Shown here: positions 36,539 through 42,075 of the stretch, piece by piece | Layout of the letters: each line of letters begins with the position of its first letter | Numbering within the stretch: the stretch's first letter is position 1 | Assembly (NCBI GenBank): GCA_947478465.1 | Contig: CANJWH010000001.1 | Coordinates: forward strand, 27,447-91,446 | DNA: 64,000 bases | Source of the DNA: Bacteroidota bacterium | Lineage (GTDB): Bacteria > Bacteroidota > Bacteroidia > SXHM01 | Direction: 5' to 3' | Made by a program: the position numbers and the translations under genes | Notes under the pieces: generated by a model | Seen by the model: the letters and a program-made list of their open reading frames with translations, nothing else | Told to the model about the DNA's origin: nothing | The model's database searches: none

Positions 36539-37843
36539 TTAAATAAATGCCTGATCAAGTGATGTTCCGGAAAGCATTCCTCCTGGAATATCGTTTTGGA
36601 ATCCCAGCACTTTTGCAATCGTTGGTACCACATCAATGCTCTCGCCTGTTACCGTTGATATAACCTGATTTTGCACCACTTTATCAGGCGGACCAACAAT
36701 AAGACAGAAAATCTGTCTTGAAACCTCATCGCTGTTATGGTCAAGTGCGTATTTACCGTAAGCATCAAGAATGGTGTTGGGCTGTTCATTTCTTCCGTGC
36801 TCGGGAACTGCAATCAGAATGGTGTCGTTTGCCATTCCGGGGGTGGATTGAATTGTTTGCCACAGATGAGCTAATGCATAGTCTGATTTGCGGATGTTGT
36901 TGCAATAGCCCGTGAAGTTTGTGTGGCATACATCAATGTCCTGCATGTTTACCACTGTGAGTTCGGGTTTAAATTGTTTAATAATCTGTTCGGCAAAAAA
37001 CACATTATACATATCGCCATTCATGCTGTTGCCAACTCCCCACGGATTATCATATTGCCCTGCCACAGCTTCATCAAACGAATTGTTGATATAGTTTTCA
37101 ATAAGTATTGCCTCTTCTTCAATATTGGTAATTCCTGCATCGCCCGGAGTATAGTTGATTGAAAAATTATTGTCCATAAACTGGCGAAGGCTTTTTACTT
37201 TATCCAACTGAACTGCTTCAAAGTTTTTGGGATCACCTAATGAATTATATCCTGGAATAGAAATTATAGAACCTGGCTGAATAAAATTGGCTCCAAATTC
37301 AGCACCATAACCTGGATACTGACTGAAATTTAATGCCGGATAAGGACCAAGAGTATTCGCAACCCACCATGCATTTAGCGCACTCATGGATGGGGAATTA
37401 TGTTTACGATAGTATTCAAAAACCGTAGGGTATGTCGGGCGTTGTTTTATATTCAAATCACCCAGCACATATTGTCCGGTAAGAGCTGTAGAATGGCCGC
37501 TGAAGTGGCCTGTTGGACCTTGTGCAAACCGAAACTCTTTGTATAATGTGCCTTGTTGCTGAAGCCTTTGTCCGCTTGGTGTTGGCAGCGCATCCATGCC
37601 ACCAATAATTTGGGGGTTAATGCTTTCGTTTCCGGTAAGCGTAAAAGGCATAAGATTTCCTTCTGCCTTTTGCATTGATTCGAAGTTGCGCACACCACCG
37701 GCAAACAAACAAAGCACAACGTGATTGGCAATACGGCTTCCTGTGGCAGCAAACAATCTTCCTGATGGAAGAATATAGGGGGCTGCAAAGGCTCCTGCTG
37801 TTGCCAGTGCTGCTTTTTTAATAAATCCTCTGCGTTGCATCAT
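36539..37843 (-). CDS. TAT-secreted protein, possibly DUF1501 / sulfatase-like metallohydrolase
   Basis: 434 aa. Twin-arginine signal MMQRRGFIKKAALATAGAFAAP. Size and signal fit DUF1501; no sulfatase CxPxR motif seen. Confidence 0.5.
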   Translation of the reverse strand: MMQRRGFIKKAALATAGAFAAPYILPSGRLFAATGSRIANHVVLCLFAGGVRNFESMQKAEGNLMPFTLTGNESINPQIIGGMDALPTPSGQRLQQQGTLYKEFRFAQGPTGHFSGHSTALTGQYVLGDLNIKQRPTYPTVFEYYRKHNSPSMSALNAWWVANTLGPYPALNFSQYPGYGAEFGANFIQPGSIISIPGYNSLGDPKNFEAVQLDKVKSLRQFMDNNFSINYTPGDAGITNIEEEAILIENYINNSFDEAVAGQYDNPWGVGNSMNGDMYNVFFAEQIIKQFKPELTVVNMQDIDVCHTNFTGYCNNIRKSDYALAHLWQTIQSTPGMANDTILIAVPEHGRNEQPNTILDAYGKYALDHNSDEVSRQIFCLIVGPPDKVVQNQVISTVTGESIDVVPTIAKVLGFQNDIPGGMLSGTSLDQAFI

Positions 37844-37844
37844 G

Positions 37845-38336
37845 CTAATAATATCTGTATTCGTTTGAAGTCATCATTGCAAAATAAATCAACTCCGGAG
37901 TTGTGCTGTTGTCTCCGGCAATTTCGTTTTCAATATGCCACAACTCAAATTCGTTTGGCAAACGATTGAAAAATTTCACGTAACTGTTTTTGATGAACTG
38001 CTGCACATCGGCATTCATTTCTGTTTGTGATGGAATATCAACACCGCCATCGTTAAGGAAGTTTTTAATAATCATTTGCTCAATCAAGCGTTGGTCGCCA
38101 AAAGCCGCGTACGCTGTTTGTAATTCTACCAATTGTGTTTGCGAAATATTTGCTCCAAATAAATCGCTGTAGGCAATAGAAATAAATGTGAATGTTGATT
38201 TTACGTTGGGCTTATTTGCATCAGGTTTTTGAATATCAACATCTGTAACACCGTATATAAAATCGGTGTCTTTTTTACATGATGATAATACCGAAACCAG
38301 CAGCAGTATCCAACAGTATTTATAGTTAATTCTCAT
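37845..38336 (-). CDS. Hypothetical lipoprotein (163 aa)
   Basis: Lipobox VLSSC; no domain recognised. Confidence 0.45.
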   Translation of the reverse strand: MRINYKYCWILLLVSVLSSCKKDTDFIYGVTDVDIQKPDANKPNVKSTFTFISIAYSDLFGANISQTQLVELQTAYAAFGDQRLIEQMIIKNFLNDGGVDIPSQTEMNADVQQFIKNSYVKFFNRLPNEFELWHIENEIAGDNSTTPELIYFAMMTSNEYRYY

Positions 38337-38344
38337 TGTGGTTT

Positions 38345-39220
38345 TTAGTTAATTCCAACGTATTCATCAGTAGTAAGCACCTTTTTCAGCAGGCCTTTAT
38401 AATCACCAGAGTTTTTGTAGTAAGTGCTGTAAAGAGCCGATTCTTCGGAAGTGGGTTGACGGAAAAGATAGGCGTTGTAAACAATTTTTACCTGACCTCC
38501 ATAGTAGTCATCAGAAGCAAAAAAAATGTCCATAAAATCCTGTTTGCTTGTGCCTATTTGAAAGAATAATACTCCGCTTAACCCATCCACAATGTTTTTG
38601 GCTTCTGCAAGTTCAGCATCAGTAGGGTAGCGGGAAAGGAAGTGTTCAAATGTTGATACTACAAAGTTTTCGGTGCCCATATTTAATTCGTCATAAAATG
38701 AATTATTAATCATTGTGCGGTGCATCTGAGCTACTGTAATGTTACCGGCAACAAGGTTGGGGTATACATCTCTCAGCGCTTCAAGTCTTGAAATTTCGTA
38801 ATTAAGCTGATCAACGTATTGAGCATATTCGGGCTGAGTAAGAAGGTTTTGATAAATGCCGATAAAAAAGGTTGTTTGGGCTGTGTCAAAATTTACAAGC
38901 AGATAAGTGTAGTAGTTTTTGTAAAGGTTTTCATAGTACTCGGGCTTGTCAAGAATAGACTGAATAAATGTTTCGCGGCTGGCTTGTGACAATGCACCGG
39001 ATTCAAGCAATGTGGCGCCTTCGGCCTTTTCTGTGTCACTTGGCTTGCGGCCCAAAACGCTTATGTAGGCCTTGTTTACATAGGTTTCAATGACTATGCT
39101 TGACAGAGTGCTGTCGGGTGGTGGAACATTGTTAGGAATTAACACTTCCTCGTGTTTGGTGCATGAAGAAAGTATTGCCAATATTAAAACAAACGGCAAC
39201 CAAAGCGTTTTATTGAGCAT
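38345..39220 (-). CDS. Hypothetical lipoprotein (291 aa)
   Basis: Lipobox ILSSC; no domain recognised. Confidence 0.45.
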   Translation of the reverse strand: MLNKTLWLPFVLILAILSSCTKHEEVLIPNNVPPPDSTLSSIVIETYVNKAYISVLGRKPSDTEKAEGATLLESGALSQASRETFIQSILDKPEYYENLYKNYYTYLLVNFDTAQTTFFIGIYQNLLTQPEYAQYVDQLNYEISRLEALRDVYPNLVAGNITVAQMHRTMINNSFYDELNMGTENFVVSTFEHFLSRYPTDAELAEAKNIVDGLSGVLFFQIGTSKQDFMDIFFASDDYYGGQVKIVYNAYLFRQPTSEESALYSTYYKNSGDYKGLLKKVLTTDEYVGIN

Positions 39221-39380: not shown

Positions 39381-40748
39381 TCATTTGCTCATCTCCGCAA
39401 AGTTTTTGAAAAAGTGCGGAATGGTTTCAATGCCTTTAAGGTAATTGAAAACTCCGTAGTGCTCGTTGGGCGAGTGGATAGCATCTGAATCCAAGCCAAA
39501 ACCAAACAACACTGTTTTCAATCCTAATTCTTTTTCAAAGAGCGCAACAATAGGAATGCTGCCACCTGTGCGTTGCGGAATTGGTTTTTTACCAAAGGTT
39601 GTTTCCATGGCTTTTGCTGCTGCCTGATAAGCAATAGAATCGGTAGGTGTAACTGCTGCATCACCACCGTGGTGCGCGGTAACTTTTACTTTCACCGACT
39701 TGGGTGCAATGGAAATAAAATGTTTGGTGAACAACTCGGTAATCTCTGCAGGGGTTTGATTTGGAACCAAACGCATAGAGATTTTTGCAGATGCTTTTGA
39801 AGCAATAACCGTTTTTGCTCCTTCGCCTGTATAACCTCCCCAGATGCCATTTACATCAAGGGTTGGACGAATAGAAACGCGTTCGTTGGTGCTGTAACCT
39901 GCTTCGCCATGTATATCCGAAAGGTCAAGGTGTTTTTTGTATTCTTCAAGACTGAAGGGAGCTTTCGCCATTTCGGCACGCTCTTCGGTGCTTAGTATTT
40001 CAACGTTATCATAAAATCCGGGGATGTTTACTTTATTGTCTTTATCGTGTAATGAGGCAATCATTTCGCACAAGATGTTGATAGGGTTTGCAACCGCACC
40101 ACCATAAATTCCACTGTGCAAATCGCGGTTTGGGCCGGTAACTTCCACTTCCATGTAGCTTAATCCGCGCAGGCCAACGGTGATAGAAGGAATATCATTG
40201 GCAATCATTCCTGTGTCGGAAATAAGCACCACATCGGCTTTCAGGCGTTCTTTGTTGGCTTTTACAAATATGCCCAGGTTGTCGCTGCCCACTTCTTCCT
40301 CGCCTTCAATCATAAATTTTATGTTGCAGGGCAGGCTGTTGGTTTTCATCATCAGCTCAAAGGCTTTAACGTGCATATACATTTGTCCTTTGTCATCGCA
40401 GGCGCCACGGGCATAAATTTTTTCGTCTTTAATAACAGGCTCAAACGGTGGCGAAGTCCACAAATCCAATGGATCGGGAGGCTGCACATCATAGTGGCCA
40501 TAAACCAACACAGTAGGGGAGGAGGGAGAGATTATTTTTTCGCCATACACCACCGGGTAGCCCTTGGTCTGGCAAATTTCTACATTATCTGCACCTGCTT
40601 CAACAAGGCGTTTTTTTACCTCATCGGCAGTTTTGAAAACGCTTTCTTTATAAGCAGGGTCAGCACTGATGGAAGGAATTCTTAACAGGTCTATCAGCTC
40701 GTTGATAAAACGGTCTTTGTTTTCGGTGATGTAGTTTTGGATGGTCAT
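39381..40748 (-). CDS. M20-family dipeptidase (cytosolic non-specific dipeptidase-like)
   Basis: 455 aa. YGHYDVQPPDPLDLW…ARGACDDKGQ metal-binding region typical of M20A dipeptidases. Confidence 0.85.
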   Translation of the reverse strand: MTIQNYITENKDRFINELIDLLRIPSISADPAYKESVFKTADEVKKRLVEAGADNVEICQTKGYPVVYGEKIISPSSPTVLVYGHYDVQPPDPLDLWTSPPFEPVIKDEKIYARGACDDKGQMYMHVKAFELMMKTNSLPCNIKFMIEGEEEVGSDNLGIFVKANKERLKADVVLISDTGMIANDIPSITVGLRGLSYMEVEVTGPNRDLHSGIYGGAVANPINILCEMIASLHDKDNKVNIPGFYDNVEILSTEERAEMAKAPFSLEEYKKHLDLSDIHGEAGYSTNERVSIRPTLDVNGIWGGYTGEGAKTVIASKASAKISMRLVPNQTPAEITELFTKHFISIAPKSVKVKVTAHHGGDAAVTPTDSIAYQAAAKAMETTFGKKPIPQRTGGSIPIVALFEKELGLKTVLFGFGLDSDAIHSPNEHYGVFNYLKGIETIPHFFKNFAEMSK

Positions 40749-40911
40749 GTTTTATGGGTTGTTGAGAGGGCGAAAGTAGGGGAATTTACAACTAAAAACA
40801 GCATTGTGCAGTCTTGTTTTATTCTCAAAACAGATTTATATCATCTAATCCTTAATCTTTTTAGGAAATGCAGCGGATTTTACTACTTTCGCAATCTGTT
40901 TTTTCGCACCC

Positions 40912-41493
40912 ATGGCAAACGTAATTACCAAAAGCTACAAGAAGGATATTTTTTGCATTGAAGGGCATTGGGAAAAAGACATGCGCAAAACCGACAGCAT
41001 TCAGCCAGCGCTGAAATTGCTGAACCTGAACATGGGCGTAAAATTTTATTATCAGCGCAGCGCAACGTTAGAAGAAATTGCACACGTTAGTTTAGAATAC
41101 AGCAAAAAAAAATACAGTAAATACATCATTTACTACTATGCTTTTCATGGTCTGCCCAACAGCATACAGGTAGGCAATAAACACATTAACTTAGAAGAGC
41201 TTGCCGAAAGATTAGAAGGAAAATTAGAAGGAAAAATAATTCACTTCGGATGCTGTCAAACTTTAGGAATCAACAAACGCAGGCTCACTAATTTTTTAAA
41301 TAAAACCGGAGCGCTTGCTATTTCGGGCTACACCAAAGACATAGATTTTCTGCGAAGCACCACACTTGATATTTTGTATTTCCACACCTGCCAGTTCTGG
41401 CAAGACATCCGCAAAATAGAAAGCGAGATGAATAAACTCTATCGCCAGATGTCAAAAGATTTGGGGTTTAGAATTGTTTACCGCACGCAGTAA
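40912..41493 (+). CDS. Hypothetical 193-aa protein with a caspase/CHAT-like His…Cys dyad context
   Basis: YIIYYYAFHG (His ~79) and IIHFGCCQTLG (Cys ~124), about 45 residues apart after hydrophobic strands. No signal peptide. Confidence 0.45.
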   Translation: MANVITKSYKKDIFCIEGHWEKDMRKTDSIQPALKLLNLNMGVKFYYQRSATLEEIAHVSLEYSKKKYSKYIIYYYAFHGLPNSIQVGNKHINLEELAERLEGKLEGKIIHFGCCQTLGINKRRLTNFLNKTGALAISGYTKDIDFLRSTTLDILYFHTCQFWQDIRKIESEMNKLYRQMSKDLGFRIVYRTQ

Positions 41494-41537
41494 TTTTTTG
41501 CGTCACCCTAAACTTGTTTCAGGGTCTTAAAGTAAGA

Positions 41538-41558
41538 TGCTGAAACAAGTTCAGCATG
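41538..41558. terminator. Hairpin between convergent genes
   Basis: atgctgaa-acaag-ttcagcat: 8-bp perfect stem. Confidence 0.4.
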
Positions 41559-41562
41559 ACGA

Positions 41563-42075
41563 TTACTTCTGATAATATTCTGTCAATATTTTTTCCAGTT
41601 CATCGCCCTCAACATCCACCGCAATAATTTTTCCAGTGTGGTCAACCAGATAATTTGATGGAATGGCATGCACGCTGAAAGGCTTTAGTTGTGCAGATTC
41701 CCAGCCCTTCGCATCGGTGATATGATTTTTCCACATTAGGTTTTGTTGTACAATTCTGCGCTTCCAAAGTCCGGTGTCCTGGTCAAGCGAAATGCTCACC
41801 ATTTCAAAATCATGACCTCCAAATTTTTTACCACTATACTTTAAATTCATGTGAACTAATTCGGGGTTATGTTTCAAACAATCAGCACACCACGCAGCCC
41901 AAAAATTTACGAACAGAATTTTTTCTTCTTTGGTAAATTTTGAAAGCATAAGCGTATCACCCGTTGGCGTAAAGCCTGTATAATCAGGAAGCGCAGTTCC
42001 TTCTTCCAGCAAACCTTTTGGATTTCCGCACGAAGAAAAAATTAACACCAGAAAAAAAATAAAATACCTGCTCAC
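41563..42075 (-). CDS. TlpA-like thiol-disulfide oxidoreductase (thioredoxin fold) lipoprotein
   Basis: FVNFWAAWCADC (CxxC active site); lipobox IFSSC. Confidence 0.75.
   Translation of the reverse strand: MSRYFIFFLVLIFSSCGNPKGLLEEGTALPDYTGFTPTGDTLMLSKFTKEEKILFVNFWAAWCADCLKHNPELVHMNLKYSGKKFGGHDFEMVSISLDQDTGLWKRRIVQQNLMWKNHITDAKGWESAQLKPFSVHAIPSNYLVDHTGKIIAVDVEGDELEKILTEYYQK

Follow-up and report, generated by a model that had tools for sequence, protein, structure and literature searches.

The DUF6642 gene and its locus

The stretch of DNA under study is a window of 64,000 nucleotides (nt) from a Bacteroidota bacterium (contig CANJWH010000001.1, positions 27,447 to 91,446 of the forward strand), and it carries a small gene of the Pfam family DUF6642 (PF20347). 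The gene is complete, lies on the plus strand at 40912..41493, and encodes a single-domain protein of 193 amino acids (aa) followed by a stop codon. An initial annotation had proposed this open reading frame (ORF), and its coordinates (40912-41493), plus strand, ATG start, and length of 193 aa are borne out from the sequence. The same holds for its location between a dipeptidase and a thioredoxin gene. A divergent gene for an M20 dipeptidase (M20/M25/M40 peptidase; 39381-40748, minus strand) lies 163 nt upstream, and a convergent gene for a thioredoxin-like lipoprotein (41563-42075, minus strand) lies 69 nt downstream; past the latter, the window contains the PorZ and then the RecO genes. The protein matches DUF6642 with 139.1 bits (E 1.6e-40), well above the gathering threshold of 27 bits, and the match spans residues 11-190 and profile positions 2-182 of 182, thus the full length. 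The gene probably encodes a cytoplasmic single-domain cysteine endopeptidase of clan CD, with the caspase-hemoglobinase fold.

The DUF6642 gene is found at the same position in six orthologous loci from related uncultured Bacteroidota genomes, with 84-94% nucleotide identity and 92-99% protein identity to the window gene. Pairwise comparisons of the window gene with these six loci gave 0.37-1.0 synonymous substitutions per site (dS) and 0.006-0.07 nonsynonymous substitutions per site (dN), with dN/dS ratios of 0.017-0.069. The ORF is real and under very strong purifying selection; the window copy stands alone, has been inherited vertically, and is highly constrained. Neither a signal peptide nor a transmembrane segment was found in the window protein (maximum 19-residue Kyte-Doolittle hydropathy of 0.47), which is therefore considered cytoplasmic. 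The proximity of PorZ and of genes for CHU_C or Por_Secre_tail cargo raised the question of a link to type IX secretion. Given the lack of a signal peptide and the abundance of such genes in Bacteroidota, this idea was rejected.

Conserved residues and the putative catalytic dyad

Conservation was assessed in two sets of sequences, namely 119 homologs sharing 34-88% identity and 146 divergent representatives. Both motifs that had suggested a caspase/CHAT-like protein in the initial annotation, YIIYYYAFHG (ending in His79-Gly80) and IIHFGCCQTLG, are present in the window protein. Its numbering of the cysteines as 124/125 has to be corrected to Cys114/Cys115 (nt 41251-41256), and the distance from His to Cys, given as about 45 residues, is in fact 35-36. 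The His79-Gly80 pair (41146..41151, plus strand) lies right after the hydrophobic strand b3, and His79 is the putative catalytic histidine and general base. Each of the two residues is retained in 118/119 homologs and 145/145 divergent representatives. The Cys114-Cys115 pair (41251..41256, plus strand) follows the hydrophobic strand b4, and Cys115 is the putative nucleophile. Within this pair, conservation is limited to Cys115, which is present in every sequence (119/119 and 146/146). Position 114 is Ser in 99/119 homologs and 111/146 divergent representatives; the latter carry Ser, Ala, Cys, Thr or Gly at this site, and the window protein has Cys. In clan CD, the residue before the nucleophile is a small one (Ser/Ala/Cys), and position 114 is its counterpart. 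Overall, the local pattern is the signature of clan CD, in which a hydrophobic block is followed by His-Gly and a second hydrophobic block by a small residue and Cys.

Additional invariant or nearly invariant positions lie outside the dyad. Strand b1 and the following loop (KKDIFCIEGHW, residues 11-20; 40942..40971, plus strand) contain the invariant Glu17 (119/119 homologs, 142/143 divergent representatives) and the nearly invariant Trp20 (119/119 and 137/143). Glu17 is a candidate for an S1-pocket or active-site residue. At the end of strand b5 (model strand 136-140) lies Ser138-Gly139-Tyr140 (41323..41331, plus strand), where Gly139 is conserved in 119/119 homologs and 144/144 divergent representatives, and position 140 is Tyr or Phe in all sequences of both sets. 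By its appearance, this segment may be the counterpart of the substrate-binding edge of clan CD ('SWR' in caspases, 'SLW' in CHAT), an equivalence drawn by eye. His111 and Cys15 were examined as alternative catalytic or metal-binding residues. Both are present in all 119 homologs, but only in 90/146 and 125/141 divergent representatives, respectively; as they vary among the divergent members, they were rejected as core catalytic residues.

Predicted fold and relationship to CHAT and caspases

An AlphaFold2 (AF2) model was built with the alignment of 119 sequences, and reached a mean predicted local distance difference test score (pLDDT) of 93.9 and a predicted template modelling score (pTM) of 0.91. 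The order of the elements is b1(13-17), a1, b2(45-49), a2, b3(73-77), hairpin, a3, b4(109-112), a4, b5(136-140), a5, a6, and b6(186-190). His79-Gly80 directly follows b3 and Cys115 directly follows b4, so that in the predicted structure His79 and Cys115 occupy the canonical dyad positions of clan CD. Two of the features that define the clan, the alpha/beta fold of the caspase-hemoglobinase type and the motif order with His before Cys, were found. In a Foldseek search of the PDB, the top matches were SAVED-CHAT, CED-3, caspase-3, and Csx29, with E values from 5e-7 to 1e-5. Against the viral models of BFVD, the best match was an uncharacterised myovirus protein, with giant-virus caspases next. 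This protein (A0A8S5MXG5 of Myoviridae sp. ctWaE18, 320 aa; E 3.6e-9, TMq 0.75) ranks above the giant-virus caspases and may be a phage-encoded relative of the minimal caspase fold. The caspase/CHAT-like reading of the initial annotation was to be given up if the modelled structure had no caspase-like fold. Such a fold is present in the AF2 model, and the reading is supported at the level of fold, topology, and profile by the model, Foldseek, and hhalign.

For the profile comparison, CHAT proteins were collected among plasmid-encoded proteins by tblastn with a rough consensus probe, and the 12 that are annotated as CHAT in their own records, from four phyla, were kept. No CHAT gene was found in the first 50 kb of the Nostoc plasmid pCC7120alpha. 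The residues invariant across the 12 aligned domains include the expected His of ATHG and Cys of LSAC. The hhalign comparison of DUF6642 with this 12-sequence profile yielded a single local alignment that spans 89 columns, with a score of 30.5, a pairwise E of 0.0017, and a probability of 15%, and places His79 on the CHAT His, Cys115 on the CHAT Cys, and residue 114 on the preceding Ala. Reversed profiles scored 11.2 and 13.5. The 60 column shuffles reached a mean of 13.5 (standard deviation 2.4, maximum 21.1), and the 60 shuffles of 8-column blocks a mean of 15.9 (standard deviation 3.1, maximum 24.8). The CHAT score is thus above all 122 reversed and shuffled controls. At the level of sequence profiles, the result supports a remote homology of DUF6642 to CHAT with the dyad in register, and not membership of the Pfam CHAT family. 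Running hhalign with -mact 0.05 or -glob gave no trustworthy alignment past the Cys, and the extension is of low confidence. The correspondences of 'ISGY' with 'SLW' and of 'MxxYYxxL' with 'LMxxFYxxL' are apparent by eye only. Furthermore, comparison with the single caspase-3 sequence (verified against PDB 7xn4) gave a weak local alignment (E 0.0017, probability 15%) in which only His79 falls on a dyad residue, His121. Taken by structure and by profile, the closest relatives of DUF6642 are the CHAT-domain proteases.

Size and distribution of the family

All close homologs of the window protein carry a precomputed DUF6642 domain. A profile search recovered 735 clusters at 90% identity, and an exhaustive HMMER scan recovered 1,399 representatives at 50% identity with E<=1e-3, including 934 with E<=1e-10. 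The family size is a lower bound, that is, at least 1,399 clusters at 50% identity, and its members are encoded in at least 535 species-level genomes. They belong mostly to Bacteroidota, with the named genera Flavobacterium, Hymenobacter, Flavisolibacter, Paraflavitalea, Xanthomarina, Niastella, and Dysgonomonas; beyond this phylum there are some divergent GC-rich members and one copy on a Brevibacterium plasmid. The lengths range from 181 to 211 aa (5th-95th percentile), and just 8 of 267 proteins exceed 230 aa. DUF6642 is essentially always a stand-alone single domain of ~190 aa. A rare fusion was observed in a GC-rich member (P0221, 399 aa), where DUF6642 occupies residues 204-395. Its N-terminal domain of ~200 aa has no Pfam match, and the segment '...LSIEVKTSR...' recalls PD-(D/E)xK nuclease motifs; judged by sequence, this fusion could hint at a nuclease-protease effector.

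Searches of NCBIfam, PADLOC, and PDB sequences with the window protein returned no match, and a search of the PDB with the family profile returned chance matches only (E>0.1). With filters off, the DUF6642 hidden Markov model found no match bridging to another family among the window ORFs of >=100 aa and the gene calls of sampled loci (best E 0.018). A literature search for DUF6642 found no paper mentioning the family in the library searched, and a topical search on caspase-like proteins, CHAT, defence islands, and restriction-modification (RM) returned nothing that, from titles and abstracts, appears to concern it. DUF6642 is known as a Pfam domain of unknown function, and no published functional or structural assignment was found. 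Its placement in clan CD beside CHAT is accordingly novel as an annotation, but the enzyme is of a known kind and does not amount to a new type of system.

Caspase-like proteases are central to bacterial immunity, as in Craspase, SAVED-CHAT cascades, and gasdermin-activating proteases. To our knowledge, the well-studied bacterial representatives all have sensor modules, either built in or tethered to them. With DUF6642 there would be a very large family whose members amount to little more than the catalytic core, in which the dyad is intact and one further Glu is invariant. The assignment to clan CD gives thousands of "hypothetical proteins", mostly from Bacteroidota, a testable biochemical function. 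If active, DUF6642 would also define a minimal caspase-fold protease for structure-function work.

Comparison with known systems

The nearest named system is CHAT (PF12770), represented by SAVED-CHAT of type III CRISPR (8tl0) and by Csx29/TPR-CHAT of Craspase (7y83, 7zoq, 8eey). The two families share the order of a hydrophobic strand with His-Gly and a second hydrophobic strand with a small residue and Cys. The hhalign comparison puts the two dyad residues in register, and members of both families are found in bacterial conflict loci. However, DUF6642 proteins are stand-alone and of ~190 aa, whereas CHAT domains comprise ~280-300 aa and nearly always occur in fusion with a sensor or adaptor module such as SAVED or TPR. 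Moreover, the His-Cys spacing is 36 in DUF6642 and ~45 in the CHAT alignment, the invariant Glu17 in the 'CIEGxW' motif is an addition of DUF6642, and the window encodes no activating partner near the gene. The likeness to caspases, metacaspases, and orthocaspases (C14, PF00656) lies in the weak alignment of His79 with His121, which also spans the hairpin and helix after the His. In contrast to these enzymes, DUF6642 is without a p20/p10 linker, autoprocessing loop or prodomain, and the acidic residue after b1 suggests a basic residue instead of Asp at P1.

Similar in size, and likewise minimal and clan-CD-like, are Tce2 (PA2372, 190 aa) and Tce1 (PA0256, DUF4347), putative cysteine-protease effectors of the H3 type VI secretion system (H3-T6SS) of P. 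aeruginosa. Both are Hcp-loaded secreted effectors of Pseudomonadota, which their authors liken to C80 (TcdB CPD), whereas DUF6642 is mostly found in Bacteroidota, lacks a T6SS context, and resembles neither of them in sequence. The toxicity of Tce2 to yeast depends on its Cys115 (PMC13323088). By analogy, Tce2 may serve as a precedent for an active stand-alone clan-CD-like protease of ~190 aa. Gingipains (C25, also from Bacteroidota), separase (C50), legumain (C13), and clostripain (C11) are large, multi-domain, and secreted or otherwise regulated, and have no sequence-level relationship to DUF6642.

With regard to gene placement, PrrC offers a functional analogy. The gene for the PrrC anticodon nuclease, a small stand-alone effector, sits inside the EcoprrI Type Ic RM operon, and DUF6642 is likewise embedded in Type I RM operons (L001, L003, L050, L059, and L068, where L numbers denote the sampled loci). 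However, PrrC is an RNase with an ABC-ATPase-like domain and not a protease, and its likeness to DUF6642 is confined to gene placement.

Genomic context in other lineages

The sampled DUF6642 copies were grouped into 22 lineages at 70% identity. Conflict-type neighbours (RM, McrBC, BREX or integrase) were found in 8 of them. In RM/McrBC-type operons, DUF6642 is on the same strand as the adjacent defence gene and 6-53 nt away from it. The gene order hsdM-hsdS-hsdR-DUF6642 was observed on one strand in L001, L002, and L050, and hsdR-DUF6642-mcrB-mcrC, also on one strand, in Flavobacterium helocola (L003, 2995-10083). Two Xanthomarina loci have same-strand arrangements of an HsdM_N fragment, DUF6642, EVE-McrB, and McrC (L059, 7498-13057) and of hsdS-hsdR, DUF6642, EVE-McrB, and McrC (L068, 7699-~12800). 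In L003, L059, and L068, DUF6642 thus lies between Type I RM and McrBC-type modules with gaps of 6-22 nt, which constitutes a recurrent three-part arrangement. Further contexts are hsdM-DUF6642 (L060), hsdR...hsdM...DUF6642-REase-ARP (L027), and DUF6642-BrxA (L051). Genes within 3 positions of DUF6642 matched 259 PADLOC models, a count inflated by redundant Type I RM models, vs 21 for genes at 5 or more positions. Among the genes within 3 positions in 22 representative loci, two proteins also matched components of the MADS defence system, mad5 (best E 7.9e-53) and mad2 (best E 9.1e-43).

In six distinct loci, a tyrosine-recombinase gene of ~300 aa overlaps DUF6642 by 4 nt (L004:5090-6555, L090:5090-6564, L092:5105-6567, L094:5105-6585, L078:7099-8558, and L114:4975-6416). 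The recombinase-DUF6642 pair lies at one edge of an island, whose far end, where captured (L090, L092), has HTH_17 and a large integrase. The cargo of the islands varies by genome and includes an AAA_15/21 ATPase, HD-CE with HATPase_c_3, AAA_17/18, and unknown genes with a methyltransferase; L092 and L094 have flanking genes in common and different cargo. The pair in L090 is at a different chromosomal site, and therefore the pair travels with the island. These islands look like a defence-cargo hot spot, or a mobile island with a conserved recombinase-protease module. Both hsdR-DUF6642-mcrBC and recombinase-DUF6642 beside variable defence cargo are candidate new conflict modules.

The remaining contexts comprise unrelated genes. 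Examples are FtsA-FtsZ or RadA genes upstream and genes for cyclophilin or Ogt that overlap DUF6642 on its downstream side; other neighbours encode DPP-IV, metabolic functions or a giant PKD/CHU_C protein. The Ogt (O6-methylguanine-DNA methyltransferase) gene, in a lineage that probably belongs to Chitinophagaceae, overlaps the 3' end of DUF6642 by 4 nt (L066:8579-9094, L087:6585-7100, L088, L089), and L082 has a RadA-like gene with an 8-nt overlap at the 5' end of DUF6642. Taken together, the Ogt, RadA, RM, and recombinase contexts form a loose DNA-associated theme. The context classes largely follow the clades of a neighbour-joining tree. The sole plasmid match is actinobacterial: Brevibacterium spongiae plasmid NZ_CP093444.1 (L086:4522-7348) carries a gene for a DUF6642 protein of 242 aa, which lies ~1.3 kb downstream of a gene of the abortive infection family (Abi_C).

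Proposed function and alternative explanations

In the proposed enzyme, His79 and Cys115 would form the catalytic dyad. Glu17 at the end of b1, together with the mostly acidic positions 145 and 153, would line the S1 pocket, and with such an acidic pocket the enzyme would preferentially cut after basic residues, in the manner of metacaspases and gingipains. Given that the protein has no sensor, prodomain or targeting domain, what keeps its activity in check is probably a narrow substrate specificity, oligomerisation, or a partner acting in trans. Since DUF6642 is embedded in RM, McrBC, and BREX loci or translationally coupled to a recombinase in other lineages, the likeliest biological role is regulated proteolysis in genome-conflict or DNA-associated processes, which we put forward tentatively. 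Across the whole family, it is plausible that some members have a conflict-related role, which is regarded here as possible rather than probable. It is rather unlikely that DUF6642 is, more specifically, an unrecognised stand-alone caspase-like effector or regulator of genome conflict acting in trans with Type I RM/McrBC. Such a protease might work as a PrrC-like backup that fires upon restriction inhibition, or in the turnover of stalled HsdR. In Bacteroidales it could work with the dedicated small tyrosine recombinase bordering defence-cargo hot spots, and solitary copies, including that of the window, would then be single-gene immune or stress proteases. The hint at a conflict-system effector in the initial annotation thus fits some lineages (the 8 of 22 with conflict-type neighbours) and not the window copy, which has housekeeping neighbours.

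Several observations weigh against a caspase-like protease with a part in genome conflict. With respect to the enzyme, a Pfam scan at E<=10 gave DUF6642 alone, with no match to CHAT (PF12770) or Peptidase_C14 (PF00656). There was no significant PDB sequence match, and neither phmmer nor hmmsearch retrieved a PDB CHAT chain. In the hhalign comparison with CHAT, the probability is just 15%, though the score tops every control, and no significance was reached with a caspase-3 profile built from 16 vertebrate orthologs (probability 0.7%), this profile being shallow and made of close orthologs only. With respect to the role, the neighbours of the window copy are all housekeeping genes (M20 peptidase, thioredoxin-like protein, PorZ, RecO), and its dN/dS near 0.02 and stable synteny look more like those of a core gene than of a fast-turnover defence gene. 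Unrelated neighbours were found in 14 of the 22 lineages, including that of the window. Additionally, the window protein matched no family of PADLOC (PADLOC-DB 2.0) at E<=10, and DUF6642 is absent from the GenBank phage collection and present on just 6 of 2.9 million viral contigs.

Alternatively, DUF6642 may be a housekeeping cytoplasmic protease or peptidase with no defence role, its RM, McrBC, and integrase neighbourhoods then being clade-specific accidents of gene order. We consider this a possibility to be taken seriously, short of a probable one. The window clade holds the gene at one locus across a dS of ~0.4-1.0 with dN/dS of ~0.02, and for the window copy these features fit a housekeeping protease equally well. 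Moreover, the context classes track the clades of the tree, no PADLOC match was obtained, and the 14 lineages have such neighbours as FtsA-FtsZ, cyclophilin, Ogt, RadA, DPP-IV, and metabolic genes. However, accidents of gene order do not readily account for same-strand operons with gaps of 6-33 nt, namely hsdR-DUF6642-mcrB in Flavobacterium and Xanthomarina and hsdM-hsdS-hsdR-DUF6642 in another lineage. The 4-nt recombinase overlap also recurs beside differing defence cargo, and at another chromosomal site in L090, and the distribution of DUF6642 is patchy and not universal.

Other explanations concern the chemistry. Instead of an endopeptidase, DUF6642 might be a caspase-fold Cys-His enzyme with transpeptidase or ligase activity, of which legumain and GPI8 are capable, or an amidase or thioesterase whose target is a small molecule or a protein modification. 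The protein is indeed minimal, with no obvious extended substrate-binding loops, and the invariant Glu17 could be a catalytic acid instead of a specificity residue. We nevertheless regard this as improbable, as the closest neighbours in structure (CHAT, separase, gingipain, caspases) all act as endopeptidases and the gene context gives no sign of a small-molecule pathway. A non-catalytic pseudo-protease with a scaffolding or ligand-sensing function, comparable to the caspase-like domains of Raptor and c-FLIP, is very unlikely. Pseudo-proteases typically lose the catalytic dyad, whereas DUF6642 retains His-Gly and Cys in ~264/265 sequences of a family that diverges below 40% identity. The least likely candidate is a nuclease or a different Cys-His enzyme with a Rossmann-like fold, for example a class I glutamine amidotransferase or a member of the DJ-1 family. 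DUF6642 recurs near DNA-related genes, and a JGI record labels the homolog P0076 as 'ERCC4-type nuclease', a label rejected on the evidence of the fold; the fold searches effectively refute this alternative. With the clan-CD endopeptidase as the preferred reading, DUF6642 is a solid, testable lead on a large family, and the window itself offers no indication of a partner, a substrate or a role in defence.

Transcription and other features of the locus

The 69-nt gap separating the convergent DUF6642 and thioredoxin-like genes contains an inverted repeat, AACTTGTTTCAG ... CTGAAACAAGTT (41511..41551), with perfect 12-bp arms and a 17-nt loop as read from the sequence. Its second arm belongs to a smaller palindrome (41537-41557), and a terminator scan placed a terminator-like hairpin on the minus strand at 41557-41537, which overlaps the repeat. 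The repeat is probably a bidirectional terminator hairpin common to both convergent genes. From the orientations of the flanking genes and this repeat, the DUF6642 gene looks monocistronic. A promoter search found no sigma-70-like sites for the window gene, and the Bacteroidota -7 motif TAnnTTTG does not occur in the 163-nt intergenic region upstream of it.

The upstream region differs among relatives. In the near-identical relatives L006 (7278-7934), L009 (7198-7854), and L010 (7206-7862), an extra ORF of 218 aa with no Pfam match lies between the M20 dipeptidase gene and DUF6642, in the region orthologous to window 40749-40911. This ORF is missing from the window, L007, and L008, and represents a small presence/absence polymorphism adjoining DUF6642. 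Further away in the window, three consecutive genes on the minus strand (36539-39220) encode apparent exported proteins or lipoproteins with weak Pfam matches at most. Their products are a protein of 434 aa with a twin-arginine-like leader and a weak Phosphodiest match, one of 163 aa with no match, and one of 291 aa with weak matches to DUF4214 and the phycobilisome linker.

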